The notes under the pieces are model-generated. The model had not been told where the DNA came from and did not search any database. It saw nothing but the letters and a program-made list of their open reading frames with translations. DNA of 64,000 nt from an uncultured Clostridia bacterium (GTDB lineage: Bacteria > Bacillota > Clostridia > TANB77 > CAG-508): the NCBI GenBank assembly GCA_947628085.1, contig CANQYM010000004.1, forward strand, positions 48,791 through 112,790, written 5' to 3'. Below are positions 19,919 through 63,085 of this stretch, piece after piece; within the stretch, counting starts at the first letter, position 1; every line of letters begins with the position of its first letter. Both the position numbers and the translations under genes were made by a program.

Positions 19919-21517
19919 TTAAAAATTAGAATCTATAAATTTATCAGTAGCTTTTAGTCTTTCTAAAACATATTCTTCAAATTTAGTTAGTTTTTCTTCT
20001 TCATTATTATAATTACTATCAACCCATCTAGTTTTATCTCTATTGAATGCACCAGAATCGTAAATTTGCTTAGAATAATTAGAAATAAGTTCTTTTAAAT
20101 GTGATTCGGAATAGTAAGTGTCTCGTAATTCTTTATATCTATTTTTTACTAAATCATTAATTTTAGTATCATTTAAATTCTTTAGAGCTCCGATTGCATT
20201 TAATTTAAAGTTAATAGTCTCATCAACAGCTACAGCATATTCGTTGGTAAAGTTTTTGCTAGTTTCATTATAAACATTTCCCATAGACAAATCATAATCC
20301 CAAGGAGTATAGATAAAAACATTTTTATTATGATGTTTTTTTATTGATATGAAAACATTTTTTAGAACGTCGGCTTTTGCATTGTCATTTCCTTGAATAA
20401 ATTCTTGGAACAGATAATAATCTATAACATTGTTTATATCACTTATATTATATAATTCATCTACATTTTTACTTTGCAAAAGAGTTACATAATAATTTTT
20501 TAAATATTGCCAGCCAGTAGCTTCATCTTTAGCTTCATTTCTTAATTCATAATTTGGAAGTTTATTTTCTTTATATTCTAAAACATGAGATTCAGTTTCA
20601 TCATATTGATTTTTTGAAAATAGATATTCTTGATTATTATCTATATTTAATTGTTTTTCATCAATACGATATCCTAAAGCATAAAGTCCCCAATATTCAT
20701 TATTTATAAAAAGCTCAAGAAATTTATATTGATTTCCATTAGTTATTCCAAACATATTATTTTTAGCAGAAGCCTCATACCATAAGTTGCTTGCAAAAAC
20801 ATTTCTAATTTTTTCTTGGTCATTGTATGCAGCATATAATATCCAATCATCATCTTTTCTCATACCTAACAAAGATAGGTGATTTTTTCTTGTGTTATTT
20901 CCTAAAGATTCCATTTTTAATGAAAGTTTAAAACATTTTTTAGGAAATACTGCTGATATTTGACCACGAATATGCATTTTTCCATCAGACCTTGTAATTC
21001 TTTTAGCAGATTTTTTACTATTATCAAAAAGATATAAAGACATGTTTATATCTGATGTTCGAGATAAGTTGTCAATATCATTAGACGTAATATTTAATAT
21101 TGGCAAAGTGGTACACCTTAATGCATATATTGTAAATTCAGTATCGTTATATAGCATTATTTCTACACAATCATTATTTTCTATTAAATTATCGGTTATT
21201 TTTTTATTAATTACTAATTTTAAATCGTCTTTATTAGTTTTATAACTAACAGTTGGATTATATCTATTACTATAACTTTCTATTAGGGAATAGTAATAAG
21301 TACAATTAACATTATCAAAAAGAAGCTCATAATCATTGAATTTTAATGATGTTGTAAAATTTTCATTTGTCATTGTTCTTTTACTAATTATTTCATTCCA
21401 AGTTTCATCACTAACTAATAAATCTTCATAATTACAGCTTTTATGATAAAGAAAGACAGAAAATATTAAAATTAATAAAATTAATATTATACAAATTAAT
21501 ATAATTTTTTTATTCAT
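19919..21517 (-). CDS. CotH kinase-family protein (membrane-anchored)
   Basis: A 532-aa ORF with an N-terminal TM anchor. CotH-like segments are present (WDYDLS..G, Y/N-rich). It is the third gene of a VTC - DUF4956 - CotH triad. Confidence 0.55.
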   Translation of the reverse strand: MNKKIILICIILILLILIFSVFLYHKSCNYEDLLVSDETWNEIISKRTMTNENFTTSLKFNDYELLFDNVNCTYYYSLIESYSNRYNPTVSYKTNKDDLKLVINKKITDNLIENNDCVEIMLYNDTEFTIYALRCTTLPILNITSNDIDNLSRTSDINMSLYLFDNSKKSAKRITRSDGKMHIRGQISAVFPKKCFKLSLKMESLGNNTRKNHLSLLGMRKDDDWILYAAYNDQEKIRNVFASNLWYEASAKNNMFGITNGNQYKFLELFINNEYWGLYALGYRIDEKQLNIDNNQEYLFSKNQYDETESHVLEYKENKLPNYELRNEAKDEATGWQYLKNYYVTLLQSKNVDELYNISDINNVIDYYLFQEFIQGNDNAKADVLKNVFISIKKHHNKNVFIYTPWDYDLSMGNVYNETSKNFTNEYAVAVDETINFKLNAIGALKNLNDTKINDLVKNRYKELRDTYYSESHLKELISNYSKQIYDSGAFNRDKTRWVDSNYNNEEEKLTKFEEYVLERLKATDKFIDSNF

Positions 21518-21526
21518 ATTTTTATC

Positions 21527-22195
21527 CTATACAATATCTTCTTGGTCATATTCAATTATAGAAAATTTTTCAACAAATTTTTGCTCTTTTAAATCTTTAG
21601 TTAAATCCTCAGGATTTTTTAGTAGCATTTCTATGGCATAGTCTAAACCTTTAGAAGTAAAGTTTCTGCTTTTAATTCTAAATCTTTTTACATGCTTTTT
21701 TAAAACATCAACAATATTTTTTTCTTCACAATCCTTACAGTGAATAACAAGCACATAAGGTAACTTTCCAAATTTTATATTTTCTAAAACTGCTAAAAGT
21801 ATTGTTACTGCAATAGAAGTTAGAATTGCTACTTCATATAATTGACAGCCACATATAATTCCAATATATACAGACCAAAGAATATATAACATATCTATTG
21901 GATCTTTTACTGCTGTTCTAAATCTTATGATAGCAAGAGCACCAATTGTTCCTAAAGTAATAACAATATTAGATTGTAAGCATAAAATTATTGTTGATAT
22001 GAAAAATGGTAATATTGTTATTAAAATATTAAATTGTTTATTATAAAAACTTCTGTGTGATACAAATCTGTAAATTAAAAATTCATAAACTGATAATACG
22101 AATACAACTAATAAAACAGATAGGGTAGTGGTAACTCCTATATCAATTCCAAATGAATTAAAAATGTTATTAAAAACTTCAATTATTCTACTCAT
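21527..22195 (-). CDS. DUF4956-like integral membrane protein
   Basis: A 222-aa ORF with 4-5 TM helices. It sits between the VTC and CotH genes, and its start overlaps the VTC stop. Confidence 0.45.
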   Translation of the reverse strand: MSRIIEVFNNIFNSFGIDIGVTTTLSVLLVVFVLSVYEFLIYRFVSHRSFYNKQFNILITILPFFISTIILCLQSNIVITLGTIGALAIIRFRTAVKDPIDMLYILWSVYIGIICGCQLYEVAILTSIAVTILLAVLENIKFGKLPYVLVIHCKDCEEKNIVDVLKKHVKRFRIKSRNFTSKGLDYAIEMLLKNPEDLTKDLKEQKFVEKFSIIEYDQEDIV

Positions 22196-22890
22196 AATAA
22201 ATTACCTATTACTTTCTTTCTTCCTATATAATATTTTGAAAAAGAAGTTTGATTAAATCCTGTTGAACAAACTATATTTTTTATATATCCTGGTAAAATA
22301 TCATCAAATTTCACTTCTAAAATATGATAATTATGTTCTTGCAAAGGAAAAGCTACATAATTTCCAGTAAGAAAATTATCAATATCATAAGAAGCAGTGA
22401 TATTTGTATCGATTGTTATACGAATATTTAAAATTGGCTCTATAAAAGCTGTTCTTTCATAGTTAATAATTACTTTAGGTTTAAAACTTTTTGTAATAAT
22501 ATCTACTATGAATTCTTTTAGTAGTGCTTTGTCTGTTTTCCAAAAGATATCCATATAATCACTAGAAATTATTTGATTAAATTCTTTAGTAGTTAAGCTA
22601 CATTTTCTTTTATGACATTTTCCAGATAATTTTTCTTTTTTCTCTAAAAATAGATTTGTACTTAAATCATTATAATATCTAATTCTCCATTTTGACCTTT
22701 TAAAATCACCAGATTCAACTTGTTTTGCTGATGTGTTTTTATAATCATCAAAATACAAACTATGTATAATATAATTTCCATTTTTTGTTGAATTTTCATC
22801 GAGCTGTAATAATGGGGAGAGTCTAGATTTTAATAATTCAAGATTGCAATTTGATAAGATATATTTCTGTTCATTCCTATATTTTTTCAT
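22192..22890 (-). CDS. VTC (polyphosphate polymerase / CYTH-like) domain protein
   Basis: The N-terminus MKKYRNEQKYIL carries the ExKY motif of VTC/CYTH domains. I moved the start to ATG 22890, which has a GGAGG RBS. Confidence 0.55.
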   Translation of the reverse strand: MKKYRNEQKYILSNCNLELLKSRLSPLLQLDENSTKNGNYIIHSLYFDDYKNTSAKQVESGDFKRSKWRIRYYNDLSTNLFLEKKEKLSGKCHKRKCSLTTKEFNQIISSDYMDIFWKTDKALLKEFIVDIITKSFKPKVIINYERTAFIEPILNIRITIDTNITASYDIDNFLTGNYVAFPLQEHNYHILEVKFDDILPGYIKNIVCSTGFNQTSFSKYYIGRKKVIGNLL

Positions 22891-22972
22891 AAAAACCTCC
22901 GTGCAAATTTTATCATAGGATTCTAATAAAATCAATATTTTTGTGTATTTTAAAAGAAATTAACATAAAATA

Positions 22973-23001: not shown

Positions 23002-23183
23002 GGAAATGCATAGCCTTTATACAGGCTATTTGAAATAGAGATTAGGTTTATAAGAAAGGAGATGAAAAGAGAAAACAAAGAGTAACTTTAAGTGAATAGG
23101 AGATGATAACAACAGAAGACAACTAGTAACTTTTGAGAATCTCTGCTAACTCGTTGGACAACGATAGAATGGAGGCAAGTAAC

Positions 23184-25334
23184 ATGACGTATTTGATCAT
23201 CACATTGATCGTGGCAATCACGGCGATTGCTTATGCCATACGGAACTACATTTACCTCAAGGGACTTTCCGAAGGGACTAAGGAGATGGTTCAAATCGCG
23301 AAATTCATTCGCGATGGTGCGAACACTTTTCTTAGGAAACTGTACGCCATTGTTATTCCGGTTATGCTAGCAATAGCTCTTGTGCTGTCAGGAATGCTCG
23401 ACTTCTCAGTCGCTGTTGCATTCATTATTGGCACATTAATGAGCGCAGCGGCTGGAATCTTTGGTATGCAGGGTGCTACTCGTGCGAATGTGCGTGTGGC
23501 AGAAAAGGCAAGAAGCACCCAAAACATCTTTGAGACCCTAAAAGTTGCTGTCCTAGGCGGTAGTATAAATGGACTTTCTACAATGGGCTTCGCTTTGCTT
23601 GGACTGGTGATTGTTTCAATTCTGTATCATAACCAGTTGTTTGACATTAGCGAAACCACGAATAGTTGGGGAATTGGTTACATCCCGATTTCTCAAATAC
23701 TTACCGCCTATGCCTTGGGATGCTCTGTAATTGCCATCTTTGCACGTGTTGCGGGTGGTATATATACAAAGGGTTCAGACACTGCAGCAGATCTTGTCGG
23801 TAAAACGGAAGAACACATTCCAGAGGATGATCCCCGGAATGCTGCGGTTATCGCTGATAACGTTGGCGACAATGTTGGCGATACAGCAGGACTTGGTTCC
23901 GATTTGCTCGAATCCTTTATGGGAACGATTGTATCTACGATAGTGCTCTTGATTCACACTATTGTGAGTTATCTGGCAAGAAACATGGAGTTCAGTCAGA
24001 AACTCTTTGAGAAACTCTATATCTTTCCCATTGTTTTCGTGACTATCGGGCTATTCTCCTGTATGCTCGCTCTCTTCAGATTTTTGAAGAAGAAAGCACC
24101 GGTCGACGATGAGCCAATTAACCCTCATGCAGAGCTTAACAAGTTCACATGGACTTCTGCTGGCCTTACAGCAGTTCTCAATATAGCCTTCACGTTTATG
24201 CTTTTCGGAGGCGAAAATGTTGGTGGTCTGCCTTTTAAGTTTGGATTTGCTTCACTGATTATTTCTGCCGTTGTTGGTATTGTCGCAGGTATTGCCATTG
24301 GCATTATCACTGAAATTTATACGAGCGATGAAAAATCAACAACGAAGAAAATCGTCGAAATTGCTCCCAAAGGGGCATCTTTGGTTATAAATCAAGGTAT
24401 GGCTGGAGCAATGAAGTCGGTTCTTCCGACAGTAATTGTATTGGCCTGCATTGTTCTTATACCATATGCCTGTGCCGGTTTTATTGGAATTGCGATTTCT
24501 GCAGTTGGTATGCTGTCATTTGTTGCAGCAACAGTTACTGTGGACTCGTATGGACCAATTGCCGACAATGCTGGAGGAATTGCCGAAATGGCAAAACTCG
24601 GCGATGATGTCCGCAAAATAACCGATATGCTAGATGCAGTGGGAAATACCACTGCTGCAATTGGTAAAGGACTTGCAATTGGCGCTGCTTCTTCTACCAC
24701 TATTGGTATGATGATTGCTTATGTTTATATCTTTAATCCGCCCACAGCGGAGGTAAGTTTAAACATGATCAACCCGCTAGTTTTCGCAGGACTGCTAGTG
24801 GGTTGTGCAATAACATACTTCTTCTCTGGTATGCTAATCGAGGCAGTAGCTGAAGTGGCTGAAAAAATGGTTCAGGAAGTGCGTAGGCAGTTTGCAGAAA
24901 TCCCTGGACTTCGTGAAGGGGAAGCACTGCCGGACTATAATGAGTGTGTTGAAATCGCTACAGTGGGAGCAATCAAAGAAATGAAGCTTCCTGCAATAAT
25001 TGCGATTATACTACCGATCGTTGGTGGGTTCATTATGGGACCGCTATTTGTTGGTGGCATACTCATGGGCGCTATTCTGTCTGCCATTGTTCTTGCAGTC
25101 TTTTGCGGAAATTCTGGTGGAGCATGGGATAACGCCAAGAAGCTTGTTGAAGCTCTTGGCAAAAAAGGCTACCCAGAACACATCGCAACAGTTGTGGGAG
25201 ACACTGTTGGCGATTCACTCAAAGATACTGTTGGACCGAGCTTGGACATATTTATCAAGATTATGTCCACGGTATCAATATTATTCGCACCACTCTTTTC
25301 TGTATACAACCTAATAAATCTTATCAGCAAATAA
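23184..25334 (+). CDS. hppA: Membrane-bound proton/sodium-translocating pyrophosphatase (H+-PPase)
   Basis: The DNVGDNVGD and VGDTVGD motifs are present in a 16-TM architecture. The start is set at MTYLIITLIV after GGAGG. GC is roughly 45-48% against about 25% in the flanks. A terminator-like hairpin lies at 25362-25385. Confidence 0.9.
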   Translation: MTYLIITLIVAITAIAYAIRNYIYLKGLSEGTKEMVQIAKFIRDGANTFLRKLYAIVIPVMLAIALVLSGMLDFSVAVAFIIGTLMSAAAGIFGMQGATRANVRVAEKARSTQNIFETLKVAVLGGSINGLSTMGFALLGLVIVSILYHNQLFDISETTNSWGIGYIPISQILTAYALGCSVIAIFARVAGGIYTKGSDTAADLVGKTEEHIPEDDPRNAAVIADNVGDNVGDTAGLGSDLLESFMGTIVSTIVLLIHTIVSYLARNMEFSQKLFEKLYIFPIVFVTIGLFSCMLALFRFLKKKAPVDDEPINPHAELNKFTWTSAGLTAVLNIAFTFMLFGGENVGGLPFKFGFASLIISAVVGIVAGIAIGIITEIYTSDEKSTTKKIVEIAPKGASLVINQGMAGAMKSVLPTVIVLACIVLIPYACAGFIGIAISAVGMLSFVAATVTVDSYGPIADNAGGIAEMAKLGDDVRKITDMLDAVGNTTAAIGKGLAIGAASSTTIGMMIAYVYIFNPPTAEVSLNMINPLVFAGLLVGCAITYFFSGMLIEAVAEVAEKMVQEVRRQFAEIPGLREGEALPDYNECVEIATVGAIKEMKLPAIIAIILPIVGGFIMGPLFVGGILMGAILSAIVLAVFCGNSGGAWDNAKKLVEALGKKGYPEHIATVVGDTVGDSLKDTVGPSLDIFIKIMSTVSILFAPLFSVYNLINLISK

Positions 25335-25498
25335 TGATAAACTGCTGTGAAAATATGCGAAGAGCTCCTTGGGGAATTTCCCAGGGAGTTCTTCCTTATA
25401 TGAAAATTAAAATTAAATTTTTAAAAAAATTGATTATTATTAATTGATATGATAATATATTTAAATAGAAATATACAAAAGTAGAGGAGTTAGAAAAG

Positions 25499-25924
25499 AT
25501 GACAAAATTTTTATATTGGATTGTTGAGTTAATTTCAAAAGCACATACTTTCATTATGCATATAAACGATACCTATGAATATGAGTTCACAGATAAAGAA
25601 TTACACTTTATAATTATTGGGTTATTAGGAATTTTTTTAATTATTATAATATATCCAATTTTTAAGCATCTTGCTAAGAAAAATCATTTTCTAACTTTAA
25701 CAGGAATTTATGTTTTTACTTTAATTGTTGTTATAACTTTTGCCATTGAAATTGGACAAAAAATTACAAACACTGGAAATATGGAATTTGCTGATGTGCT
25801 ATTTGGAATTACAGGCTTTGTATCGATGTATATTGGTTTGGCAGTAATTGTTGGAATTATTAAATTTATAACAAGCATTATAAAAAAACATATAAATAAA
25901 GTAGAAAATAAAAACAATGGATAA
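25499..25924 (+). CDS. Hypothetical membrane protein
   Basis: A 141-aa ORF with four hydrophobic helices. A GAGGAG RBS precedes the start. Confidence 0.4.
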   Translation: MTKFLYWIVELISKAHTFIMHINDTYEYEFTDKELHFIIIGLLGIFLIIIIYPIFKHLAKKNHFLTLTGIYVFTLIVVITFAIEIGQKITNTGNMEFADVLFGITGFVSMYIGLAVIVGIIKFITSIIKKHINKVENKNNG

Positions 25925-25953
25925 ATAAAATAATTTACAAAAGAGGAGTATAT

Positions 25954-27273
25954 ATGAAAGAAAAAGGAATTTTACTTCCAATCTTTTCTTTGCCAAGTAA
26001 ATATGGTATTGGTGATTTTGGAAAAGAAGCATATGAATTCATAGATATATTAAGTGAGAATAATATGAAATATTGGCAAATTTTGCCTATAAATGCTTGT
26101 GAAAATTTACCATATTCACCACAAAGTTATTATGCACTAAATGAAAGCTATATATCACTAGATTTGTTAAAAGAAGAAAATTTAATTGAAAATCCTGAAG
26201 TAAGGAAAGATACAAATAGAGTAAAATATGATAATTTTAAAGAAAAATATTATTATGAAGCTTTTAGAAATTTTACTAAAAATGAAGAATATGAGAAGTT
26301 TATCGAAAACAAAGAAATAGAAGAATATGCTGAATTTATAAGTGATTTAAAAGGAGAAGAAAAAGATTATCATTTGTTTCTGCAATATATAGCAAGCAAA
26401 CAATGGCTTAATTTAAAGCAATATGCAAATTCAAAAAATGTGGAAATAATTGGAGATATGCCGATATATCCAACTTTTGAATCAAGCGAAACAAAATATC
26501 ATCCAGAATGTTTTGAAATGGAAAATGGAGAATTTACTTTTGAATCAGGCACACCACCAGATTATTTTAATTCTGATGGCCAAAAGTGGAATAGTCCAGT
26601 ATATAATATTGAAAACATTAAAAATAATAATTATGAATATTTAGTAAAAAGGTTTAAATATTATTTAAAACTATTTGACAAAGTTAGAATAGATTACTTT
26701 AGAGGATATGATTCATTCTTTAAAATACCAATTGGTAAAACTGGAAAGAAAGGCTTTTATGTAGATGGTGTAAGTTATGGATTTTTTGATGAGCTATTTA
26801 AAAACAAAAACATAAAAGTTGATAACCTAATAATAGAAGATTTAGGAGATATAAGAGAAGAAACAATTAAATTAAGAAATTATTATGGATTTACAAGACA
26901 AAAAATTTTACAATTCACAATAGACTTAAATAATTTATATGATAGAGATAATGAATCTGAAAATGTTTTAGTCTATCCAGGAAATCATGATAATTATACA
27001 ATATATGGCTGGTATAAAACTTTAAATGATGAATACAAGGAAAGATTAAAAGAGTTTTTAAGAAGAAATGAATGTTATGATATAAATGTTAATATTGGTA
27101 TGATGCAATATTGTTCAAAATGCAAGGCAAAAATGGCAATAATATCAGTTCAAGATATTTTAGGTTTAGACGATAGTGCTAGAATTAATTTTCCAGGAAC
27201 AATTTCAGAAAGCAATTGGTCTTGGAAACTTACGAGTTTTGATGATTTTAAAGAAAGAATAAAAGACTTTTAA
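25954..27273 (+). CDS. 4-alpha-glucanotransferase (GH77 amylomaltase-like, short form)
   Basis: The N-terminus GILLPIFSLPSKYGIGDFG...YWQILP and the GDMPIY segment match the MalQ/GH77 family. Length is 439 aa. Confidence 0.65.
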   Translation: MKEKGILLPIFSLPSKYGIGDFGKEAYEFIDILSENNMKYWQILPINACENLPYSPQSYYALNESYISLDLLKEENLIENPEVRKDTNRVKYDNFKEKYYYEAFRNFTKNEEYEKFIENKEIEEYAEFISDLKGEEKDYHLFLQYIASKQWLNLKQYANSKNVEIIGDMPIYPTFESSETKYHPECFEMENGEFTFESGTPPDYFNSDGQKWNSPVYNIENIKNNNYEYLVKRFKYYLKLFDKVRIDYFRGYDSFFKIPIGKTGKKGFYVDGVSYGFFDELFKNKNIKVDNLIIEDLGDIREETIKLRNYYGFTRQKILQFTIDLNNLYDRDNESENVLVYPGNHDNYTIYGWYKTLNDEYKERLKEFLRRNECYDINVNIGMMQYCSKCKAKMAIISVQDILGLDDSARINFPGTISESNWSWKLTSFDDFKERIKDF

Positions 27274-27300
27274 ATGAATGTAAATGGGGAGGAAAATATA

Positions 27301-27354
27301 ATGTCTAAAAACATTGATACTGTGCGCACACACACACGGGGACTCATTAAATGA
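27301..27354 (+). other. Out-of-frame upstream start peptide (MSKNIDTVRTHTRGLIK) ending at the (CA)5 tract, with a strong GGGAGG RBS
   Basis: The ATG is 9 nt after GGGAGG. This reading frame is +1 relative to the downstream acyltransferase ORF. The (CA)5 tract at 27327-27336 lies between the ATG and the conserved body of the acyltransferase. Confidence 0.5.
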
Positions 27355-28489
27355 AAATGATGTAATAAAAAATAAAAAAATTGGAAAAGAAAGAGATTCT
27401 AACTTTGAGCTTTTAAGAATATTTGCTATTTTTATGATAATAGTAAGCCATTTTTGCTATCATGGAGGAGTTTTAGAAAATGTAGTAAGTGAAAAAATCA
27501 CAACAAATCTAATAATAACTCAGATTTTATATTTTCAAAATTGGACTATTAGTGTTTTCATAATGATAACAGGATATTTTATGATTAAATCAAAAGCTAA
27601 TTATAAAAAAATAATTAATCTTATAATAGAGATGTTTTTTTATTCAATAGTTTTTATGGGAATATTTTATGGGTTAAATATTGTAAAATTTGATATTAAA
27701 CGATGTATATCTAATATTTTTCCTATTTTTTGGAGCGGAAATTGGTTTGTTAAATATTATATTATACTTTATTTATTGATACCATACCTTAATATATTTA
27801 TTGAAAAACTAAGTAAAGAACAATTACAAAAGGTTATTGTATTATTTTTGATAATTTTTTCTATTATTTCTACTATTACTCATAACGCTTGGAATTTTAC
27901 ATGGCATAATATATTTATATTAGATTATATTATAGGAGCTTATATTAGGCTTTATCCTATAAAGAAATTAGAAAATAATAAAATAAATATAATATCTTTA
28001 TTATTAATTACTATTTTATCTTTAGTTTTTTCAGTAACCTGTATGCTTCTTTCAAAAATATTAGATGTTTCTATTTTGTTTAAAATACCAGGAGCATTAA
28101 TAAATTCTTTTTCATCACCAGTTCCAATTTTAATAGCATTCTTTATTTTTCATTTATTTAAAAATATAAAGATAAAATCTAAATTAATAAACTATATAGC
28201 ATCTTCTACTTTAGGAATATATTTAGTTCATGACAATAGTTTTATTAGAGATTGGATATGGAAAACGTTGGTGCCAAATGCTAACTTTTTAGGATTAAAC
28301 ACACTATTATACATTTTATTTATGCTTGCAAAAGTAGCTATTGTATTTCTAGTTTCTGTTGCGGTTGATAAAATTAGAATTATTTTACTTCAAAAATTAG
28401 AAGATAAACTAAGCAATAAAATTTATAATATATTACTAAATTTTAAAAATTTTATTAAAAGAAAAGTTTATAATAAAATAACATTATAA
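27314..28489 (+). CDS. Acyltransferase-3 family (OatA/OafA-like) O-acyltransferase, possibly phase-variable
   Basis: The FELLRIFAIFMIIVSHF start of the acyltransferase-3 domain and about ten TM helices are present. As written the only start is a TTG with no RBS. The well-placed ATG is out of frame. Confidence 0.6.
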   Translation: MILCAHTHGDSLNENDVIKNKKIGKERDSNFELLRIFAIFMIIVSHFCYHGGVLENVVSEKITTNLIITQILYFQNWTISVFIMITGYFMIKSKANYKKIINLIIEMFFYSIVFMGIFYGLNIVKFDIKRCISNIFPIFWSGNWFVKYYIILYLLIPYLNIFIEKLSKEQLQKVIVLFLIIFSIISTITHNAWNFTWHNIFILDYIIGAYIRLYPIKKLENNKINIISLLLITILSLVFSVTCMLLSKILDVSILFKIPGALINSFSSPVPILIAFFIFHLFKNIKIKSKLINYIASSTLGIYLVHDNSFIRDWIWKTLVPNANFLGLNTLLYILFMLAKVAIVFLVSVAVDKIRIILLQKLEDKLSNKIYNILLNFKNFIKRKVYNKITL

Positions 28490-28561
28490 TTTGAAAATAT
28501 AAAATTTGCATTTTAAAGTCGAAATAATATATAATAGTAAAAAAATGGGAGGAATAAAATA

Positions 28562-28921
28562 ATGGTTAAAGAAAGAAATATTGTTGTATGTATTTTATTA
28601 TCAATAATAACATGTGGTATTTATGCTATTTATTGGTTTATAACATTAACAGATGATACTTCAAAATTAAATAATGATCCAGATTTTTCAGGAGTTAAAT
28701 CTTTTATCTTTTCTCTTATTACTTGTGGTATCTATGGTATTTATTGGAACTATAAAATAGGTAAAGAAATGTATGAAGCAAATCAAAAAGCTGGGATTCA
28801 AGCAAGTGATAATTCTGTAATATACTTAATTTTATCAATATTTGGATTAAGTATTATTACATACTGTTTAGTTCAAAGTGAATTAAATACTATAGCTAAA
28901 CAAACTGGTAATGCTCAATAA
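28562..28921 (+). CDS. DUF4234-like small membrane protein
   Basis: The CGIYAIYW motif is duplicated across two TM helices. Length is 119 aa. Confidence 0.45.
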   Translation: MVKERNIVVCILLSIITCGIYAIYWFITLTDDTSKLNNDPDFSGVKSFIFSLITCGIYGIYWNYKIGKEMYEANQKAGIQASDNSVIYLILSIFGLSIITYCLVQSELNTIAKQTGNAQ

Positions 28922-29318
28922 TAAGAAAAATATTATATTAGTCATAGGGATTTTGATTTTTGTTATTCTTTTTCAAGACAATATTGGAATCCCTTGCTTC
29001 TTTCATGAACTAACAGGATTATATTGCCCAGGTTGTGGTATCACAAGAGCATTTCTTTCATTAATCAAATTAGACTTATATCAAGCATTTAGATATAATA
29101 TGTTGGTAATAATATTATTACCTTTTTTTGCTATGTATACAATTTATAAATTAATTATGAAAGGAAATAAAAAAATACCAAATTTTATTTGGTATTTTTT
29201 ATTAATCATTACAATATTATTTGGAATACTTAGAAATATTTCTGCTTTCTCATTTCTTGCCCCAACTAAGGAAAATTTAAAAAATAAGCCCTATTGTTCT
29301 TGGCATAATATATATTAA
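28911..29318 (+). CDS. DUF2752-like membrane protein
   Basis: The CPGCGITRAF motif is present. Length is 135 aa. Its start overlaps the end of the upstream gene. Confidence 0.5.
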   Translation: MLNNKKNIILVIGILIFVILFQDNIGIPCFFHELTGLYCPGCGITRAFLSLIKLDLYQAFRYNMLVIILLPFFAMYTIYKLIMKGNKKIPNFIWYFLLIITILFGILRNISAFSFLAPTKENLKNKPYCSWHNIY

Positions 29319-29339
29319 ATTAATGATTGGAGAAATGTA

Positions 29340-29765
29340 GTGAAAATAATAAAATTTGAAGAAAAATATCGAGATGATATGATTTTTATGGTATTAAGTG
29401 CTAAAAATGCTTTAGGCAGAGTTCCAAAACTAAACGAAGATTTATTAGATATAAAAAAGAATTATTTTGACAAAGGACATCCTTTTTGGATAGCATTAGA
29501 TGAATTTGATAGAGTAATTGGATGTATAGGTACAAGAAGTGATGAAGATGGAAAAATATTTTTATCAAGATTATATGTTAAATTCGATCATAAGAGACAT
29601 GGGATTGGTAGTCAATTATTGCAACTAGCAGAAGATTCTGCAAGGGAAAGAGGATATAAAGAAATACATGTTCATTTAGGAAAAGATTATTTAGAAAGTC
29701 ATATTTTTTATCCAAAACATGGATATATTGAATATCAAAATTTATATATGAAGAAAAAATTGTAA
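29340..29765 (+). CDS. GNAT family N-acetyltransferase
   Basis: The acetyl-CoA-binding-like segment HGIGSQLLQLAEDSARERGY is present. Length is 141 aa. The start is GTG. Confidence 0.65.
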   Translation: MKIIKFEEKYRDDMIFMVLSAKNALGRVPKLNEDLLDIKKNYFDKGHPFWIALDEFDRVIGCIGTRSDEDGKIFLSRLYVKFDHKRHGIGSQLLQLAEDSARERGYKEIHVHLGKDYLESHIFYPKHGYIEYQNLYMKKKL

Positions 29766-29849
29766 GTTGTTACACAAAAAAGATTTATTAAAATTTGATT
29801 ATATAAATGATTTATGTGATAAATTTAGTGAAGTATTAAATAAATAAGG

Positions 29850-30512
29850 ATGGTACTAATAGTTATGAAAATAGATGAATTAAATATTGAATATGATAAA
29901 TTACAATTAAAGTATGGAGCAAAAGAATTAACATCTATATATAATGGCGGTTGTACAGAAAATCCGAATTTTTGCTTTATTTTTATGAATCCTACTGGAA
30001 AAAATATTGCATCTAATCCAGAATGGAAAGGCAGAAGATCTCCATGGATTGGAACTAAAAATATATGGAAATTATTTTATCGAATAGGTTTACTTGATGA
30101 AGAAATATATATGAATATTATGTCAAAGAAACCTCAAGAATGGAATGAAGAGTTTGCAAATTTAGTATATGATAATGTAATAAAACATAAATACTTTATT
30201 ACGAATTTAGGAAAATGCACTCAATTAGATGCAAGAGTATTACCTAATTCAGTTTATAATCAATATTTAGATTTATTATTCAAAGAAATAGAAATAATAA
30301 ATCCTAAAGCAATTATTACACTTGGAAATCAAGTTAGCTCTATCGTATTAAATAAAAAAATATCAGTATCACAATGTAGAAAACAGAGCTTTTCAAAAAA
30401 TATTTTAGGGAAAATTTATAAAGTCTATCCAGTTTATTATCCAATAGGAAATGGAATGATGAATATGGATAAAGCAATAGAAGACTTAAATTATATTCAA
30501 AAATTTTCATAG
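29850..30512 (+). CDS. Uracil-DNA glycosylase superfamily protein (family 4/5-like)
   Basis: The segments FMNPTGKN...SPWIG and FITNLGKCTQ...IEIINPKAIITLGNQVS are collinear with family-4 UDG motifs (GEGPG...; ICNVVKCRP...IEIINP..IVALG). The start may instead be the ATG at 29865. Confidence 0.5.
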   Translation: MVLIVMKIDELNIEYDKLQLKYGAKELTSIYNGGCTENPNFCFIFMNPTGKNIASNPEWKGRRSPWIGTKNIWKLFYRIGLLDEEIYMNIMSKKPQEWNEEFANLVYDNVIKHKYFITNLGKCTQLDARVLPNSVYNQYLDLLFKEIEIINPKAIITLGNQVSSIVLNKKISVSQCRKQSFSKNILGKIYKVYPVYYPIGNGMMNMDKAIEDLNYIQKFS

Positions 30513-30675
30513 TTAATACAGACTTTTTTATTATATAATAAAATTGAAATATTCAATATTGACAAACTATTTTTTCTATAATAATATACAAACAATAGTT
30601 CTTAAATATAGTAAAGACAGATGTATTATTAAAAGTAATAATAAGAACTAAATTTTATAAAAAGGATGTGTTCTT

Positions 30676-31617
30676 ATGGAAGAAAAGAAAAATGAAATTA
30701 TAATATTTGAAAATCAAGATGTTAAACTTGAAGTTAATTTAAAAGAAGATAATGTGTGGATTACTGCAAATCAAATGGCTATACTGTTTGATAAAGATGA
30801 AACTACTATCAGAAAGCATATTAATAATGTGTTCAAAGATAAAGAATTAGAAAAAGATAACAACAGGCAAAAAATGCGCGTTGATGGTGTAAAGCAATTA
30901 GTACCATTTTACAATTTAGATGTTATTATATCAGTAGGATATAGAGTAAAGTCAAAAAATGGTGTAATTTTTAGACAATGGGCAAATAAAATTTTAAAAG
31001 ACTATATGTTAAAAGGTTATGCTGTAAATCAAAAAAGATTAGAATATCTAGAAAAAACAATAAAACTTATAGATATTGCTAATAGAATTGATAAAAGATT
31101 AGAAGGAAATGATGCAAAAGAGATTTTAAAAGTAATTGGAAATTATTCAAAAGCTCTTGACTTATTAGACGATTATGATCACAAAACATTAAAGAAGCCA
31201 AATGGAAATGTTGACGAAAGAAAAGTTGAATATAATGAATGCTTAAAAGTTATAGACAAATTAAGATTTAATCAAGAAAGTTCTTTATTTGCAGTAGAAA
31301 GAGATAAGGGATTAGAATCAATTATAGGTAATATTTATCAAAGTTTTGCTGGACAAGATGTTTATAAAAGTATAGAAGAAAAAGGAGCTAATTTTTTATA
31401 TTTAATTGTGAAAAATCATGTATTTGCTGATGGAAATAAAAGAATAGCAGCTACCTTATTTATATATTTTTTGAACTTTTATGGTATTCTATATAAAAAT
31501 GGAAAACAAACAATAGATAACAATACTTTAGCTGCATTAACTTTGTTAATAGCAGAATCAAATCCTAAAGAAAAGGAAATTCTTATAGATTTAGTAATGA
31601 ATTTTTTAAATGATTGA
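30676..31617 (+). CDS. RhuM-domain / Fic (Doc) family protein
   Basis: The N-terminus IIIFENQDVKLEVNLKEDNVWITANQMAILF matches the virulence-RhuM domain. The C-terminus carries the Fic motif HVFADGNKRIAA (HxFx[DE]GNxR). Confidence 0.7.
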   Translation: MEEKKNEIIIFENQDVKLEVNLKEDNVWITANQMAILFDKDETTIRKHINNVFKDKELEKDNNRQKMRVDGVKQLVPFYNLDVIISVGYRVKSKNGVIFRQWANKILKDYMLKGYAVNQKRLEYLEKTIKLIDIANRIDKRLEGNDAKEILKVIGNYSKALDLLDDYDHKTLKKPNGNVDERKVEYNECLKVIDKLRFNQESSLFAVERDKGLESIIGNIYQSFAGQDVYKSIEEKGANFLYLIVKNHVFADGNKRIAATLFIYFLNFYGILYKNGKQTIDNNTLAALTLLIAESNPKEKEILIDLVMNFLND

Positions 31618-32734
31618 GTAAAAATAAATCACAATTTTTAAAAAGCTGAAAAACGCTAGGGTAGGAGAGAGGGCTAGTTTTTAAAATTTTGAAAATATAA
31701 AAATATAATATATTTAAAAGTTTCTAAAATTCTAATATTAAAATTTCAAAAATTTTAGTATTAGAATTTTTTATGAAAAATATAATTATAAAATTAAAAA
31801 TCTGAATTTATAAAAATTTAAAAATTTTGATTTCAAATTTGTTTGTATAATTTTATAAAAAACCGAACATTTGTTATTTGAGAAATTTTTTATATGTTTA
31901 AGATAAATTTTAAAATTTTTACATTATAATTATATGTTTTTTAAATATGTCTATAATCTTATATAGATTATAGTTTTTTAGCGTCTTAAAATCGTTTTTA
32001 AGGCGTTTTTATATTTTATTAAACAAAGTTACATTACTTAAATTATAATTCTAAATATCATTTTATTATGATGATCTAAAAAATATCATAAAAATACTGG
32101 AATTTCTGCAATTTATAAAAATCTCTAAAAATGGCTAAAAAAACGACGCACGAGAATCGATTTTAAGCCGTTTTTATTTTAAAGTAATATAAGTTTGTTG
32201 TCTAAAAAATAAGGCTATATTTAGAAAATAGCGATTTTGGAGGTTTTTGATAAAAAATGAAAATAATATAATAAAAAATAAAAAAGTGAAAAAATAATAC
32301 AGAAATATTCATATAAAAATGTTATAAATATAAGAATTGTTGAAATCATTGAAAATAAAGACTTACTAGAATCGATTATAAAGCGATTTAAAATAAAAGT
32401 AATATAGTTTATTGTCTAAAATAAGAGCTTAATAGAGGCTGTAATGAAGATATAGCAAGAAGTATAGGTATTATAGATATATGTTTGAAATCCTACTCCT
32501 TTTTGCACAAAACTTTGATTTTGTGCAAAGTTGTATATCTATTTTTACACAAATTTTGATTTACCTTCCCATGCTTTCTTCTATTGTTTTTGATAAATTT
32601 AAAGTATTTTCCTTTTAAATCTATTTTTATAAATTTAAGTTTTATTAAATATTTTTTAATCTTAGATTAATTTTCAATTTCGTTTTATATTTTTTATTAA
32701 AAAAATTATTTTAAATTTTATTTTTTATATTCCT

Positions 32735-33337
32735 TTATTCCCTATTTTTTAATTCTTTTAATTTATTATATAAAATTTTTACATTTTCCATTTCAAATGT
32801 ATTTTTACCATAATGCTCTTCTTCTCTTCTTTTGCAAAATCCTTCAAATTCTGATATAGCAACATCAATATTACTTGGATTTACTTTGTCTTCATAAACT
32901 TTTAAAGCTGTATTTATATAACCGCATATGGCACATGCTGTCATTGCTCTAAAATATGAAATTTCATTTAAAGTAGATATTTTATATAATTTCATTGCAA
33001 AATTATCATCTATTTTTTGAGGATTAGTTAAAATCATTTTTTCGCAAACATAAACATCATTATCACTTACAGTCTTATAAAGCTTGCTATCTTCTGGAAT
33101 TTTAACTTCGCATAATGTATCTCCTCTAATAAGCCATCTAAAAACGTAATTATAGGTTGATATGCAAAATCCTCCCATTTTCATACTTTCTGTTGCATTT
33201 AAATCAATTTCTTTATCTGCAATAACAACTTCATCTATAGGAAATTTCTTTCCATCCCTATATTCTTTTGTTGTTTGGATTACTCTATAATATTTTTTAT
33301 TTTTATCTGCTTCACATTCAAAAAGTTTTCCTAACAT
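32735..33337 (-). CDS. Hypothetical protein (Cys-containing, no recognised domain)
   Basis: A 200-aa ORF with an AAGGAG RBS. It lies downstream of the ABC exporter pair and is separated from it by a long-stem terminator. Confidence 0.4.
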   Translation of the reverse strand: MLGKLFECEADKNKKYYRVIQTTKEYRDGKKFPIDEVVIADKEIDLNATESMKMGGFCISTYNYVFRWLIRGDTLCEVKIPEDSKLYKTVSDNDVYVCEKMILTNPQKIDDNFAMKLYKISTLNEISYFRAMTACAICGYINTALKVYEDKVNPSNIDVAISEFEGFCKRREEEHYGKNTFEMENVKILYNKLKELKNRE

Positions 33338-33407
33338 TATATTATTTTAACTCCTTATGTATTTAAATAAAACAATTTTTACATTAATATAATTTTATTT
33401 ATAAAAA

Positions 33408-42102: not shown

Positions 42103-42831
42103 CTACTTTCTTTGTTTTGGTTTGAAATTTGTTAATTTTTCTCCATAGTAATAAGAATTTGTATATGTTTTATATTGCATTTGTACTTTATTTAATACAA
42201 CTCCTGCAACTTTACCACCAACATTTTCAATAGAAGCTTTTGCTTTGTTTAATTCTTCCATTTTTGTATAATTTTGTGCTGCAACTATAATTGAAAAATC
42301 AACAAGTCTTGCTAAAATAAGTGCATCTGTAACTACTAAACAAGGTGGAACATCAAAAATAATAATATCAAAAATTTCACTTAATGTATCTATAATTTTT
42401 TTCATTTTATTTGATACTAAAAGTTCTGATGGGTTTGGTGGTACACTTCCAGCTGTAATTAAATAAAGATTTTTTATTTCTGTTTCTTGTATATAATTTT
42501 TTATATCATCTTTTTTGTCTTTAAATATTTGGTCAACTACTCCAGATAAATAGTTTGAAATTCCAGGTCTTGGACGCAAATTAAATATAGCATATTGACG
42601 TCCTTTTCTCATATCTGCATCTATAATTAAAACTTTTTTATCTATTTGAGCAAATGCTGCTGCTAAGTTTGCTGTAACATAACTTTTTCCCTCTCCAGGA
42701 ACTGTGCTTGTTACTATCATAACCTTTTTTTCTGAATCTGCATTCATAAATTGGATATTTGTTCTTAAATTTCTAAACATCTCTGATTCAGGAGATTTTG
42801 GATTTTCTTGTACTACAACTTCTTTTTTCAT
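42103..42831 (-). CDS. cpsD: Tyrosine-protein kinase CpsD/YwqD (BY-kinase cytoplasmic subunit)
   Basis: It has a Walker A'-type P-loop (TSTVPGEGKSYVTANLA) and a C-terminal Tyr-rich tail (YKTYTNSYYYG). Confidence 0.8.
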   Translation of the reverse strand: MKKEVVVQENPKSPESEMFRNLRTNIQFMNADSEKKVMIVTSTVPGEGKSYVTANLAAAFAQIDKKVLIIDADMRKGRQYAIFNLRPRPGISNYLSGVVDQIFKDKKDDIKNYIQETEIKNLYLITAGSVPPNPSELLVSNKMKKIIDTLSEIFDIIIFDVPPCLVVTDALILARLVDFSIIVAAQNYTKMEELNKAKASIENVGGKVAGVVLNKVQMQYKTYTNSYYYGEKLTNFKPKQRK

Positions 42832-43787: not shown

Positions 43788-44912
43788 TTAGTTTTTAATT
43801 ATCATTTTTAAATATTCTTTCATAAAATTATTTAAATCGCCATTCATAACTGCTTCAACATTTCCAACTTCATAATTAGTTCTATGATCTTTAACCAATG
43901 TATATGGACAAAAAACATAAGATCTTATTTGACTTCCCCATGCAATGTCTTTTTGAATTCCTTTTAATTCTGAAATTGTTTCTTTGTTTTCTTTTTCTTT
44001 TAAATCAATTAATTTGGATTTTAACATTCTCATTGCTGTTTCTTTATTCATAGTTTGAGAACGCTCAGACTGACAAGAAACAACTATATTTGTTGGAATA
44101 TGAGTAATTCTTACTGCAGAATCTGTTTTATTTATATGTTGTCCACCAGCACCAGATGACCTATATGTATCTATTCTTAAATCATCTGGATTAATATCAA
44201 CTTCTATATCGTCAGATATTTCTGGTAAAACTTCTACTGAAGCAAATGATGTATGCCTTCTTCCCCCACTATCAAATGGAGAAATTCTAACAAGTCTATG
44301 AACTCCCATTTCTCCTTTTAAAAATCCATAAGCATTTTCACCAGAAATTAAAAATGTAACACTTTTAATTCCAGCTTCATCACCTTCTAAATAATCTAAT
44401 TCTTTTACGCTAAATCCATTTGAAAAAGCCCACTTTGTGTACATTCTATAAAGCATTTCTACCCAGTCCTGGCTTTCTGTTCCACCAGCTCCTGGATGCA
44501 TTGTGATAATGGCATTATTATTATCATACTTTCCTGAAAATAATGTTTGAATTTCTAAATTACTTATACTTTTTTGTATCTCATTAGAATTATGTAATAG
44601 CTCTTTTAAAAGCTCTGCATCATGTTCTTCTTCTAATAAATCATTCATTTCCATTAAATTATCTAACTCTGAACTTATTTGCTGAAAAGAATTAATTTTC
44701 TTTTGTAAAGTCTTAATTCTAGCAAATATTTCATTTGATTTTTGGCTATTATCCCAAAATCCTTCTTCTAATGATTCTTTTTCTAGCTTTTTTAATTCAA
44801 GCATTAAAGATTCGATTTTCATCGAATCTTTAATTTGAATTAATTTAGCCTTTTGCTCTTCTAATAATCTTTTATTTTCTTCTAACTCTAACACAAAATT
44901 AATACCTTTCAT
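43788..44912 (-). CDS. prfB: Peptide chain release factor 2
   Basis: The SPF motif (RISPFDSGGRRHTSF) and GGQ motif (SGAGGQHINKT) are present. It is a single uninterrupted 374-aa ORF. The start lies 2 nt after the stop of the giant gene. Confidence 0.85.
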   Translation of the reverse strand: MKGINFVLELEENKRLLEEQKAKLIQIKDSMKIESLMLELKKLEKESLEEGFWDNSQKSNEIFARIKTLQKKINSFQQISSELDNLMEMNDLLEEEHDAELLKELLHNSNEIQKSISNLEIQTLFSGKYDNNNAIITMHPGAGGTESQDWVEMLYRMYTKWAFSNGFSVKELDYLEGDEAGIKSVTFLISGENAYGFLKGEMGVHRLVRISPFDSGGRRHTSFASVEVLPEISDDIEVDINPDDLRIDTYRSSGAGGQHINKTDSAVRITHIPTNIVVSCQSERSQTMNKETAMRMLKSKLIDLKEKENKETISELKGIQKDIAWGSQIRSYVFCPYTLVKDHRTNYEVGNVEAVMNGDLNNFMKEYLKMIIKN

Positions 44913-44914
44913 AT

Positions 44915-47900
44915 TTATTTGGTTTTATTTTGAATTGTTACATTTTGATTTTCTACTGTATTTGTATTTATATTCTTTTTTGTAGATATTGTGTTTGTTG
45001 TATTCGTAGTATTTGTTGTATTTTCTAAATCTATTGTATTGGTAAAGTCATTTTCTTCTACAATGTTTTCAGTATTAGAATTTTCATCTACTCTGTTATT
45101 ACTACTATTAACTATATTTCCTTCTACATCACTTGTAATAGTATTTTCTACTGTATTTGTTATATTTAAATCATCTAATTGAATTCCAGTGATGTTTAAT
45201 AGATTATCTGCTTCTAATGAAATACTTTTAGCATTAGGATTTTTATCAAATGGATTAATTGTGAAATCCTCTGTTTCTTTTTGTATTTGTCTGAAGTATT
45301 GTTTTTTAACAGCTGTGCTGTTTGAAAGATTTCTATTTCCAGATTGAGCGTCTTTTATTAATGCTTCAAGATATTTTTCGTAAATTTCTTTTGCGTTTAT
45401 ATATGTACCTTGATCATCATAATGCTCTCCTAATTTCTTATATCTGTCTAATTTGTATTTTTTGAATGTAATGCTTTCATCATTCATTATATAACGTAAT
45501 GCAGTTAAATCTGTTGTATTTCCGCCTTTACCATTTTTAATACCAACATATTTTTGACTATAGTAAGCACAAAGTCCATCATAATACCCACGTTCTCCAG
45601 CCATTTGCCATGCCAAGTATTTAAAGTTTGCTCCATCTGGACGGTCATTATCTGCATGTGGTTGATACCAGTGAATGTTGAAAATTGAATCTGTGTCTGC
45701 TCCTGGTGAACGTTGTTCATATTCTTTAACACCTGGTCTTAGCATTATACGATTATCCCAAAGTGCTTCCATAGATTTTAAGTTCATTCCTTGAACTCTA
45801 TCTGTTGTAAGTGGTGTGTATGCAACTACATCATCACCTTCGTCTTGATGAGCTTCATCAACTTGTGGATAAGATACTTGTACTGCAAGTTTTGCCTGAT
45901 CTTCTGGAGATAGTGTAAAGAATGCTTTTGCTTCTATCCAGTCTAAGAAGTCATTTGTATTAAAGTAATTTTTATAAAATACTGATAATTTCTTATCATT
46001 TTCAACTGTTGCACGATAGAAGTTTTGAGTTGTATTTTCTTTCATAAGGTCATCATCAAATATGTTTGGACTTACCCAACCATCTCTATAATATTGTTGT
46101 AAGAATCCTGCAGCATAGTCTTCTGCTCCACCTCTACGTCCATAACCATTTAAGAAAATTTTACTATCTTGGTTATGAAGAGTTTCGTGTGTTCCAACTC
46201 TAAAGTTATCTAGCATTTTTATAACAACCCAGAATACTTCATTTCCGTTTGCATAAGCGCCTCCTGAAGTACCTGCCCATCTATTTATAGCTTCAATGAA
46301 ATATTTGTGATATGGTTCTTGTGTTGTTAATGGATTATTATATACAGTTGCATTTCCTTGGCCTGTATAAGTTGTTCTCATATCATAGTTTACATCGCAA
46401 TATTTATTTAAAGTGTCTTTGCCCCAATATGTGTATCCAAATTCGTAGAATGCTTTAACTTCTTTTAACCAAACATTTACTTTCTTTTCGAATGCTGCAA
46501 TTTGATCTGGGTTGCTAGGATCTGTCATATAAACACGTAAAGATCCAAAGTATGCTTGTGTTGGTGAAGCAATTGCATAAGTACTATTTTCTGGAACTGT
46601 ACATAGTGGTAAGAAATCATTTTGTACTTTACCATCTTTCTTTAGATGATCCCATAATGTGTAATCAACGCCTTCTTTATCAATGCTTACTGTATAATAT
46701 CTTCCACCTTTCCAATGTTCCTTAAACCAAGTATTTCCATCTGTATAATGTGTTAATGTTTGTACATAGTAATCTAAGAATAATCCTAAGTTAGTTAATT
46801 TAGTATATTTTGCAAGACCATTGTTATAGAATCCTGCTGTTCCATTTGTTGCGGAATTTGTTCCAGTAATAAGTTCATTTGTGATATTTGCCATAGTCAT
46901 TCTATTATCAAACATTTCATTTGCATGGAACATTATTGAGTCTGCAACATTTATTCCATCCATATCTAAATTATACCAATATGTGAAATAATTATATGCA
47001 AATAACAAGTTCTTTAGTTTTCCAGTTCTTACTAAATCTTGTTTAATTAAGTTATCTAAAACTTCACTTTCAAAACTCATACTGTAATCCATATTAACTA
47101 AAGTATTTATAATAAAGTCTTTAATATGATTTTTAGTATAGTTTTCAAAATGTTCTTTATATAATCTACTATCTTCTCCTGAAACAATTGGCTCTAAGTC
47201 GTTATCATATGTGTAAGAAGAAGCCTCAGTAACAAGATAATTTATAATGTCTAAGTTAGGATTTATAATATACTTATTGTAGTTATATCCAACATTTAAA
47301 TCACTTATCATATATGATGCTACATTTCCATAGTAATCATCAAAATCTATATGATATTTCTTTGAAGTTTTATCTGTAAATACAATTCTTATTTCATTTA
47401 AGCTATTATAATTTTCTGTTGTAAGAGAAGAAATCATATTTCCTGATTTATCATAAGGAATAACATATTTAACTATTTTTGTGCTTAATTCGTTATCAGC
47501 AGGAATTTTGTTTCCATCTCTTATTATTTCTTTTGCATCATAGAATGGCATTATTTTGTACATATTGTGATATACAATTTCTTTATTTGAATCATAGTCT
47601 GGTAATTTATGTACTCTGTTATAATCTGGAATATATACTTCTGTGTTTTCTGGTTGTTCACCATCATCACTAAATGAAGCTGATACAGATTTAAGTACTG
47701 GTAAATTATTAATTGATGTATTACCATCTATTATCCAAGCTTGATCACTAAAATCTAATTTTTTAAAGAAATTGCTATCTATGTCTTTTGCATCTACTTC
47801 TTTTACAGCATTTGATAATGTATTTTTTAAACAATTTGTTTCTTTTAATTGATAATTGTCTTTTGAACCTTCTGCAAGAGTTGCTGTATTTTTATTTTCA

Positions 47901-62933: not shown

Positions 62934-63085
62934 ATATTTTTATGTTTTTTCATTTTATTAAATTATAATTTATCATATTCCTCATCATTAACAGGTTCAA
63001 GCCATTCATTTGATGTGTTTTCTCAGTGACTTTAAATATGAATTTCCTATAAAAAATAGATTATGCTTTTGCAAGCTACTTTTCT

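Follow-up and report, generated by a model that had tools for sequence, protein, structure and literature searches.

Acetylases of O-antigen and exopolysaccharide that consist of an acyltransferase 3 (AT3) domain only occur on mobile or accessory loci, Oac of Shigella phage SF6 being an example, and oafA proteins carry a C-terminal SGNH domain. In Haemophilus influenzae, oafA encodes an AT3-family acetyltransferase for a surface glycan (lipooligosaccharide) and has inside its 5' coding region a tetranucleotide repeat (GCAA/AGCA, 8-17 copies) whose unit changes shift the reading frame; ON and OFF strains both exist (PMC10505976). In Helicobacter pylori, oipA and sabA carry CT dinucleotide repeats within the sequence for the signal peptide, a few codons past the start, and unit number sets the frame relation between the ATG and the gene body (PMC10564699; PMC2715451). 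The CT number of oipA is highly variable among strains, with 386 ON and 150 OFF of 536 sequences (PMC10564699). Here we analyze an AT3 O-acyltransferase gene encoded in a stretch of 64,000 nt (the window; contig CANQYM010000004.1) from an uncultured Clostridia bacterium (CAG-508). Its 5' end combines a strong start, one base out of register with the enzyme, and a short CA repeat, and the original prediction was that gain or loss of CA units switches the gene on and off. Our leading, tentative reading is a fixed OFF or attenuated configuration and not high-frequency switching.

The locus shares with oafA a simple repeat inside the 5' coding region of a surface-type AT3 gene, and with oipA and sabA a dinucleotide repeat a few codons past the start. 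Unlike oafA, the repeat in the window is a dinucleotide of five interrupted units, neither polymorphism nor an ON allele is seen, and the protein, of 391 aa, is AT3-only. In contrast to oipA and sabA, all window-type sequences are invariant, and the repeat is flanked on either side by homologous codons in its own frame. The gene also resembles the AT3-only acetylases of the Shigella phage SF6 Oac type, being a strain-specific, 10-transmembrane (TM)-type AT3 of the ~330-390 aa class in a variable locus, but no phage context was found at the window locus. A phage origin was considered and rejected, as the sole phage match is weak (25% identity).

A Shine-Dalgarno (SD) sequence, GGAGG, is located at 27288..27292 (+ strand), 8 nt 5' of an ATG at 27301. 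This ATG opens, in what we term frame A, an open reading frame (ORF) of only 17 codons (27301..27354, +) that reads MSKNIDTVRTHTRGLIK and then stops at TGA 27352-54. The AT3 ORF (27314..28489, +) lies in frame B, +1 relative to the ATG. Frame B opens after a TAA at 27299-27301, and its sole canonical start 5' of the R-X10-H motif is TTG 27314, which is 21 nt from the SD and has no SD within 5-13 nt. The next frame-B ATG (27434) is inside TM1, past the conserved Arg, and ATT 27380 and ATA were rejected as starts for lack of an SD. The tract TGTGCGCACACACACACGGGG occupies 27321-27341 and includes (CA)5 at 27327-27336, then C 27337 and a G4 run (27338..27341, +). An 18-nt perfectly alternating pyrimidine/purine run extends over 27321..27338 (+), and frame B reads it as C-A-H-T-H. 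It falls within a 29-nt core, TTGATACTGT-GCGC(AC)5-GGGGA (27314..27342, +). A 10-nt perfect palindrome, TGTGCGCACA, with an FspI-type TGCGCA site, is at 27321-27330. In these respects the original prediction described the start region correctly: the strong SD and ATG, the position of the (CA)5, and an enzyme frame with only a TTG start and no ribosome-binding site of its own.

Several observations set this start region apart within the window. Sites with GGAGG and a start codon 5-10 nt on number 18, and most open ORFs of >100 codons; the near-identical GGAGGAAAAATATAATG at 42831 opens a 242-aa gene. SD-ATG 27288-27301 is thus a canonical start for this genome. By chance, 0.02 occurrences of CACACACACA would be expected per 64 kb, and 2/100 shuffles contained a match. 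Apart from the tract, the window (GC content 26.5%) has no non-AT dinucleotide repeat of ≥5 units and no alternating purine/pyrimidine run of ≥16 nt. No other simple sequence repeat (SSR), and no poly-G/C of ≥6, was found in the 64-kb window. Frame A contains the two rarest Arg codons, CGC (0.27/1000 codons) and CGG (0.20/1000), and the CAC codons of the tract are disfavoured (2.1/1000, versus 10.8/1000 for CAT). Reading of TGA as a sense codon was rejected on two grounds: the window encodes release factor 2 (RF2), and translation with table 11 leaves ORFs intact. The RF2 gene prfB (TIGR00020, 518 bits; window 43788-44912, - strand) is one continuous ORF of 374 aa and lacks the programmed +1 frameshift that usually interrupts it. 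RNA folding of 27270-27400 was unremarkable (z = -0.78), and Rfam searches gave no match.

In-silico edits agree with the claim that adding one CA unit or removing two joins the ATG to the enzyme. Addition of one CA yields a 396-aa protein beginning MSKNIDTVRTHTHGDSLNE, and removal of two units also fuses the frames, whereas removal of one does not. The frames are likewise joined when the G4 run, another potential -1 fusion site, is shortened by one G, or when an A5 run at 27307..27311 (+) loses one A. The CA tract is therefore not the unique candidate fusion site.

The configuration is fixed in the sequences available. The same sequence recurs on at least seven public contigs that come from several samples. 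The SD, ATG, A5 run, tract and G4 run are base-for-base identical in the window, in ENA contigs from two samples (L001 and L002) and in Logan contigs from three runs (L055-L057); the tract-spanning sequences, all consensus assemblies, are thus identical in 6/6. Relative to the window, L001 has 3 single-nucleotide polymorphisms (SNPs) in 7.2 kb and L002 has none. Overall there are 0-3 SNPs per 6-7 kb, from which it follows that one near-clonal lineage has been seen repeatedly at low coverage. The exact TTG-start protein (P0001), which includes the tract residues, is encoded on four contigs, and its cluster has one member. In a collection of 15 billion proteins, no tract-length variant or ON allele was identified, and a query in the ON form matched the TTG-start form only. 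A search of metagenome contigs with the flanks and a variable gap between them gave no match, and right-flank contigs stop short of the tract. The end of L057, 5 nt past the tract, was considered as an assembly-graph branch. This was rejected in favor of a coverage break, because length heterogeneity should end the contig before GGGG.

A second copy of the 5' module was identified in L058, a 1.9x contig that ends 12 nt 5' of the core. It heads the gene for protein P0041, which has 36% aa identity to the window protein; its 5' end reads tgactgaaaTTGTTGATACTGT(AC)7GGGGAT, and the 362-aa ORF is intact. The core (27314-27342) is identical at 27/29 positions, the G4 run included, and the module differs at 16/61. 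The alternating tract is 14 nt in both and the flanks are diverged. Comparison of tract length across strains, which had been proposed as a check on switching, thus returned one length in all of the consensus assemblies and in L058. The (AC)7 encodes Y-T-H-T-H. The ATG frame of L058 is also out of register, stopping after 18 codons, and the distance from ATG to TTG is 13 nt in both sequences, where the L058 value assumes that the A of the ATG is just beyond the contig end. The palindrome TGTGCGCACA arises from two A>G differences relative to the L058 (AC)7, both of which keep the purine/pyrimidine alternation.

It is unusual that two AT3 genes encoding proteins with 36% identity share a near-identical 29-nt core, of which only two copies are known. 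No further copies of the module were found in JGI metagenomes, viral contigs or 1.84 billion protein representatives. Eight metagenome-contig matches to the module pattern were rejected because all fall in a dispersed repeat, TTGATACTGTAATCACACACAACGGGGA, that is unrelated and not associated with AT3 genes. On these JGI metagenome contigs (L059-L066) the repeat ends ...TTGATACTGTAATCACACACAACGGGGATGAACCACTTAAA and the flanks differ per contig; it is a multi-copy mobile element that matches the pattern by chance. A profile built from the N-terminal alignment matched nothing but short AT3 N-terminal fragments, all lacking an LIL-x-x-HTHGD tail, and in a HMMER search of the N-terminal 56 aa against the 1.84 billion representatives, residues 1-13 were covered by no match.

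The reading frame of the tract can be evaluated using relatives. P0004, a more distant homologue (47% identical), has an ATG in frame, 12 nt to the TTG and no repeat. Its 5' end, ATG ACG GAA ACG TTG CAG TTC TAT ACA CAT GTG GAT, encodes M-T-E-T-L-Q-F-Y-T-H-V-D, and TAT ACA CAT GTG GAT stands where the window has the repeat; the window is 6 nt longer here, in frame. L067, a decayed relative of L058, has a frame-B ATG at the CTG position and AACAAAAATACATAC in place of the (AC)7. Window frame B, T-L-I-L-C-A-H-T-H-G-D-S-L-N-E-N-D, aligns with the N-termini of P0004, L058 and L067. Compared with the P0004 N-terminus, frame B gives a shuffle p of 0.017 and frame A a p of 0.60. These alignments show the CA tract as in-frame coding sequence, predicted to specify (Thr-His)n of a poorly conserved cytoplasmic tail. 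They also place the 1-nt offset upstream of the tract, probably in the interval from codon 3 to the TTG, within or adjacent to the A5 run (27307-27311). Removing one A from this run gives MSKTLILCAHTHGD..., parallel to MTETLQFYTH of P0004. The N-terminus of the enzyme may be MILCAH..., MSKT... or MSKNIDTVRTHTHGD....

The 5' end of the AT3 gene is mosaic. The closest homologue, P0121 (371 aa, ~80% aa identity and 87% nt identity), begins MEKVKKERDSNFELLRI behind an AAGGA SD. Relative to P0121, L042 and L043, this ancestral start has been destroyed in the window: the SD is changed (AGGA>AAAA), the ATG is ATT (27380-82), and there is a net deletion of 8 nt. A MAFFT alignment with L042, L043, L044 and L003 identifies 27364..27397 (+) as a remnant of the ancestral 5' untranslated region (UTR) and the start of the AT3 body. 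The net deletion brings the old UTR in frame with the body, and the remnant is now read through as N-E-N-D-V-I-K-N-K-K-I-G. DNA homology to L044 begins at 27364 (blastn), within the old UTR, and the junction between the module and the L044-like body is at about 27345-27364. With its own SD and ATG gone, expression of the AT3 gene would depend on the upstream module of SD, ATG and CA tract.

The body of the gene encodes an apparently bona fide AT3-only O-acyltransferase. The Pfam match to Acyl_transf_3 (PF01757) covers residues 30-349 (E 4e-26) and model positions 3-322 of 326, and scores 92.3 bits against a cut-off of 31, in line with the original assignment to surface-type AT3 O-acyltransferases. 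Aligned with 14 homologues, the N-terminal R-X10-H motif RIFAIFMIIVSH of TM1, the TG(Y/F) motif (ITGYFMI) and the S-x-x-x-Y-L-x-H motif (SSTLGIYLVHD) are all intact, and there are only three deviations at columns invariant among eight relatives. In an AT3 protein scan of genome contigs, the best relative is 35% identical. The body has zero internal stops over 391 codons at 26% GC, dN/dS relative to the sister gene is 0.29-0.62, and the window and sister branches have accumulated 24 and 22 amino-acid changes, respectively, with no acceleration. As judged from these comparisons, the body is without sign of decay. The gene for P0004 lies among polysaccharide-synthesis genes, in a cluster that also encodes a flippase and a CTP-transferase, and a role for the window protein in acylation of surface glycans is probable, as it fits this position. 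The JGI annotation of relatives, an annotation only, is 'surface polysaccharide O-acyltransferase-like enzyme'.

The fixed configuration that we tentatively favor would operate as follows. A module of ~60 nt, consisting of SD, ATG, 13 nt, TTG-ATA-CTG-T, a 14-nt alternating (G/A)C tract and GGGG, heads a horizontally acquired AT3 gene that no longer has its own SD and ATG. The SD would load ribosomes at ATG 27301, one base off the enzyme frame, and a 17-aa peptide would be made. In low-GC Gram-positive-type ribosome-binding sites, 21 nt between SD and start is too far for SD-directed initiation. Because TTG 27314 is at this distance, and because the short ORF overlaps and would occlude the AT3 start, the enzyme would be OFF or made only as a trickle from the SD-less TTG. 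The length of the tract keeps the homologous codons to its left and right in one frame. That the same register heads an intact ORF in L058, and that the body evolves at a rate equal to that of its sister, suggests a tolerated, stable configuration and not a fresh lesion. The arrangement recalls overlapping upstream ORFs and leader peptides, in that a short, strongly initiated ORF of 17 codons with very rare codons overlaps, in a different frame, the start of the main ORF. It differs from leader peptides in that there is no evidence of regulated stalling and no conserved structure, with two sequences only from which to judge conservation.

Several considerations weigh against this interpretation. 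The assemblies are consensus sequences at ~2-6x coverage from one near-clonal lineage, in which minority alleles would be invisible. Localization of the offset comes from short alignments with one in-frame relative, and the zone 5' of the tract alone gives p = 0.09. TTG 27314 has no SD and lies under a strongly initiating out-of-frame ORF, such that even a trickle of enzyme is hypothetical. An SD-ATG of perfect consensus, kept out of frame, is what an OFF phase variant looks like, and the perfect (AC)7 of L058, with its disfavoured CAC codons, is hard to explain without slippage dynamics.

The last two considerations lead to the main rival, active SSR switching, in which CA units are gained and lost, (CA)6 or (CA)3 is ON, and the sequenced (CA)5 is the dominant OFF state. 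We regard this as possible, but on balance unlikely. The part of the original prediction that stands is the geometry, which is exactly that of an OFF variant from which one CA restores a 396-aa protein. The SSR is placed no later than codon 13 of a gene for a surface-modifying enzyme, in an accessory locus, the L058 module has seven perfect units, and the tract combines an expectation of 0.02 per window with disfavoured CAC codons in a 26% GC genome. Precedent exists in oafA (PMC10505976) and oipA (PMC10564699). The part without support is variation itself: among the at least seven contigs and the protein collection there is neither a length variant nor an ON allele, and the two diverged copies of the module have equal tract length. 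The window tract, GCGC(AC)5, is interrupted and has only five units, whereas phasome screens use a cut-off of ≥6 dinucleotide units (PMC6321876), which the (AC)7 of L058 exceeds. The homologue alignment places the offset 5' of the tract, and no other SSR or poly-G/C of ≥6 accompanies it in the 64 kb. Of the four testable features of a contingency locus, the frame-shifting placement is present and three are lacking (repeat number, polymorphism, and ON together with OFF alleles).

A recently inactivated pseudogene, in which a 1-nt insertion in the A run or a slip in the tract has shifted the start and the body has not yet decayed, is an unlikely explanation. In its favor are the loss of the ancestral SD and ATG, with the upstream ATG as the sole good start and out of frame, and a dN/dS that is fairly high at up to 0.62. 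Lesions are also frequent among AT3 relatives from the same sample series: L003 has internal deletions, L044 is divided into parts of 166 and 213 aa, and L067 retains only 76 aa. The adjoining DUF4234 gene is split in L050 by a ~19-nt deletion; all four contigs are of low coverage, and some of these lesions could be assembly errors. However, the 13-nt offset also occurs in L058, ahead of an intact 362-aa ORF in a module that differs at 16/61 positions, and thus looks old, not recent. The window ORF is likewise intact over 391 codons at 26% GC, with near-equal changes on the two branches. The ATG is out of frame, yet an in-frame TTG follows 13 nt on, the same layout as in L058.

The conserved left flank of the locus is malQ, encoding 4-alpha-glucanotransferase (25954..27273, +; PF02446, 355 bits), and the right flank is a DUF4234 gene (28562..28921, +; PF14018) that also occurs in relatives without AT3. 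Between them is a 1.2-kb segment private to the strain (27282..28498, +) that carries the AT3 gene. Homologues of malQ are 97-98% identical in relatives whose downstream content differs. In L050-L053, malQ is followed directly by DUF4234, DUF2752 and NUDIX genes. Blastn matches between the window and L050 are limited to 25179-27281 and 28499-29285, and L050 has an unrelated 71 nt in place of 27282-28498. In L048 and L049 a tyrosine-integrase island follows, with the integrase directly after malQ, and L048 departs from the window immediately past the malQ stop codon. A check for direct repeats around the insertion yielded only a pair of SD regions that resemble each other, AAATGGGGAGGAA (27282) and AAAATGGGAGGAA (28542); as a target-site duplication the pair was rejected because the positions do not coincide with the insertion boundaries. 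A scan of the + strand identified no terminator between malQ and the AT3 start. By these comparisons, the AT3 gene is an accessory gene, apparently horizontally acquired, in a hypervariable locus.

At least three haplotypes of the post-malQ locus (window 27274-33400) occur among strains with 97-98% identical malQ: AT3 with GNAT, UDG-like and RhuM/Fic genes (window), the minimal DUF4234-DUF2752-NUDIX arrangement (L050-53), and the tyrosine-integrase and radical-SAM island (L048/49).

It could be proposed that the 5' end is a portable module exchanged among divergent AT3 genes of uncultured gut bacteria, with a default-OFF register released by slippage or by -2/+1 recoding at CGG. This proposal is speculative and, in our view, doubtful. 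If true, it would be a contingency system with a portable default-OFF module in a lineage from which SSR switching is not known.

Quite improbable is that the 29-nt core functions at the DNA level, either as a site of recombination or exchange or as a portable 5' expression module that joins one leader to different AT3 bodies. The 27/29 identity of the core between genes for 36% identical proteins is consistent with this, as are the chimeric structure of the window gene, the hypervariability of the locus (with a tyrosine integrase after malQ in one haplotype), and the maintenance of alternation by both A>G tract differences. Two copies are known, however, and there is no partner or inverted copy in the window or in the other compared loci, no recombinase adjacent in the window haplotype, and none of the additional copies sought in JGI metagenomes, viral contigs and protein representatives.

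Programmed recoding is very unlikely. It would take the form of a +1 shift on A-AAA-A (27306-27311), or of a -2 slip of tRNA-Thr from ACA 27334-36 to ACA 27332-34 with CGG 27337-39 in the A site. Perfect re-pairing is possible for both slips in the window sequence, CGG is the rarest Arg codon (0.20/1000), and ACACACACGGGG is kept in L058. The slippery A run, on the other hand, is not kept in L058 (GAA ATT), -2 shifting is rare, and neither a stimulatory RNA structure (z = -0.78) nor an Rfam match was predicted. A sequencing or assembly indel, the alternative raised with the original prediction, is compatible with the low coverage (~2-6x) but is effectively refuted by the identity of independent SPAdes (ENA, two samples) and Logan (three runs) assemblies, and by the same frame relation in L058, a different gene.

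Other features of the window were also identified. Upstream of malQ, a cluster of CotH, DUF4956 and VTC-domain genes (19919-22935, -) adjoins a membrane H+-pyrophosphatase (23133-25334), and 97.6% nt identity is kept across this cluster in L048 (1-2887). A 1.1-kb stretch at 31618-32734 has no ORF of >45 aa. Part of it (31619-32208) is 70-74% identical to DNA that abuts the AT3 or Fic genes of two unrelated contigs, L044 and L047, and an Rfam search of the stretch matched no family. Either a degraded gene or conserved non-coding sequence could account for it. A GC island at 62400-62950 (46-55% GC in a 26% GC genome) adjoins a DUF1653 gene (61928-62185, -) and holds a 113-aa ORF (62502-62843, +) with an AAGGAAGGAG SD and no Pfam match; by composition it looks like a recent foreign insertion. 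Also present is a giant ORF of 4520 aa (44915-58477, -) with no NCBIfam match and with 18- and 36-nt tandem repeats at 57115-57328.

To our knowledge, SSR switching has not been described in this lineage. If the tract truly switches, this would be an SSR-controlled gene for surface O-acylation in an uncultured, very AT-rich gut bacterium, outside of the set formed by Haemophilus, Neisseria, Campylobacter and Helicobacter, and it would be relevant to evasion of phage and antibodies. The fixed OFF or attenuated configuration has a different meaning. An out-of-frame ribosome-binding site and ATG beside a repeat is insufficient to call phase variation, and an accessory gene may acquire a new head in the form of a foreign 5' module and end up silent or attenuated.

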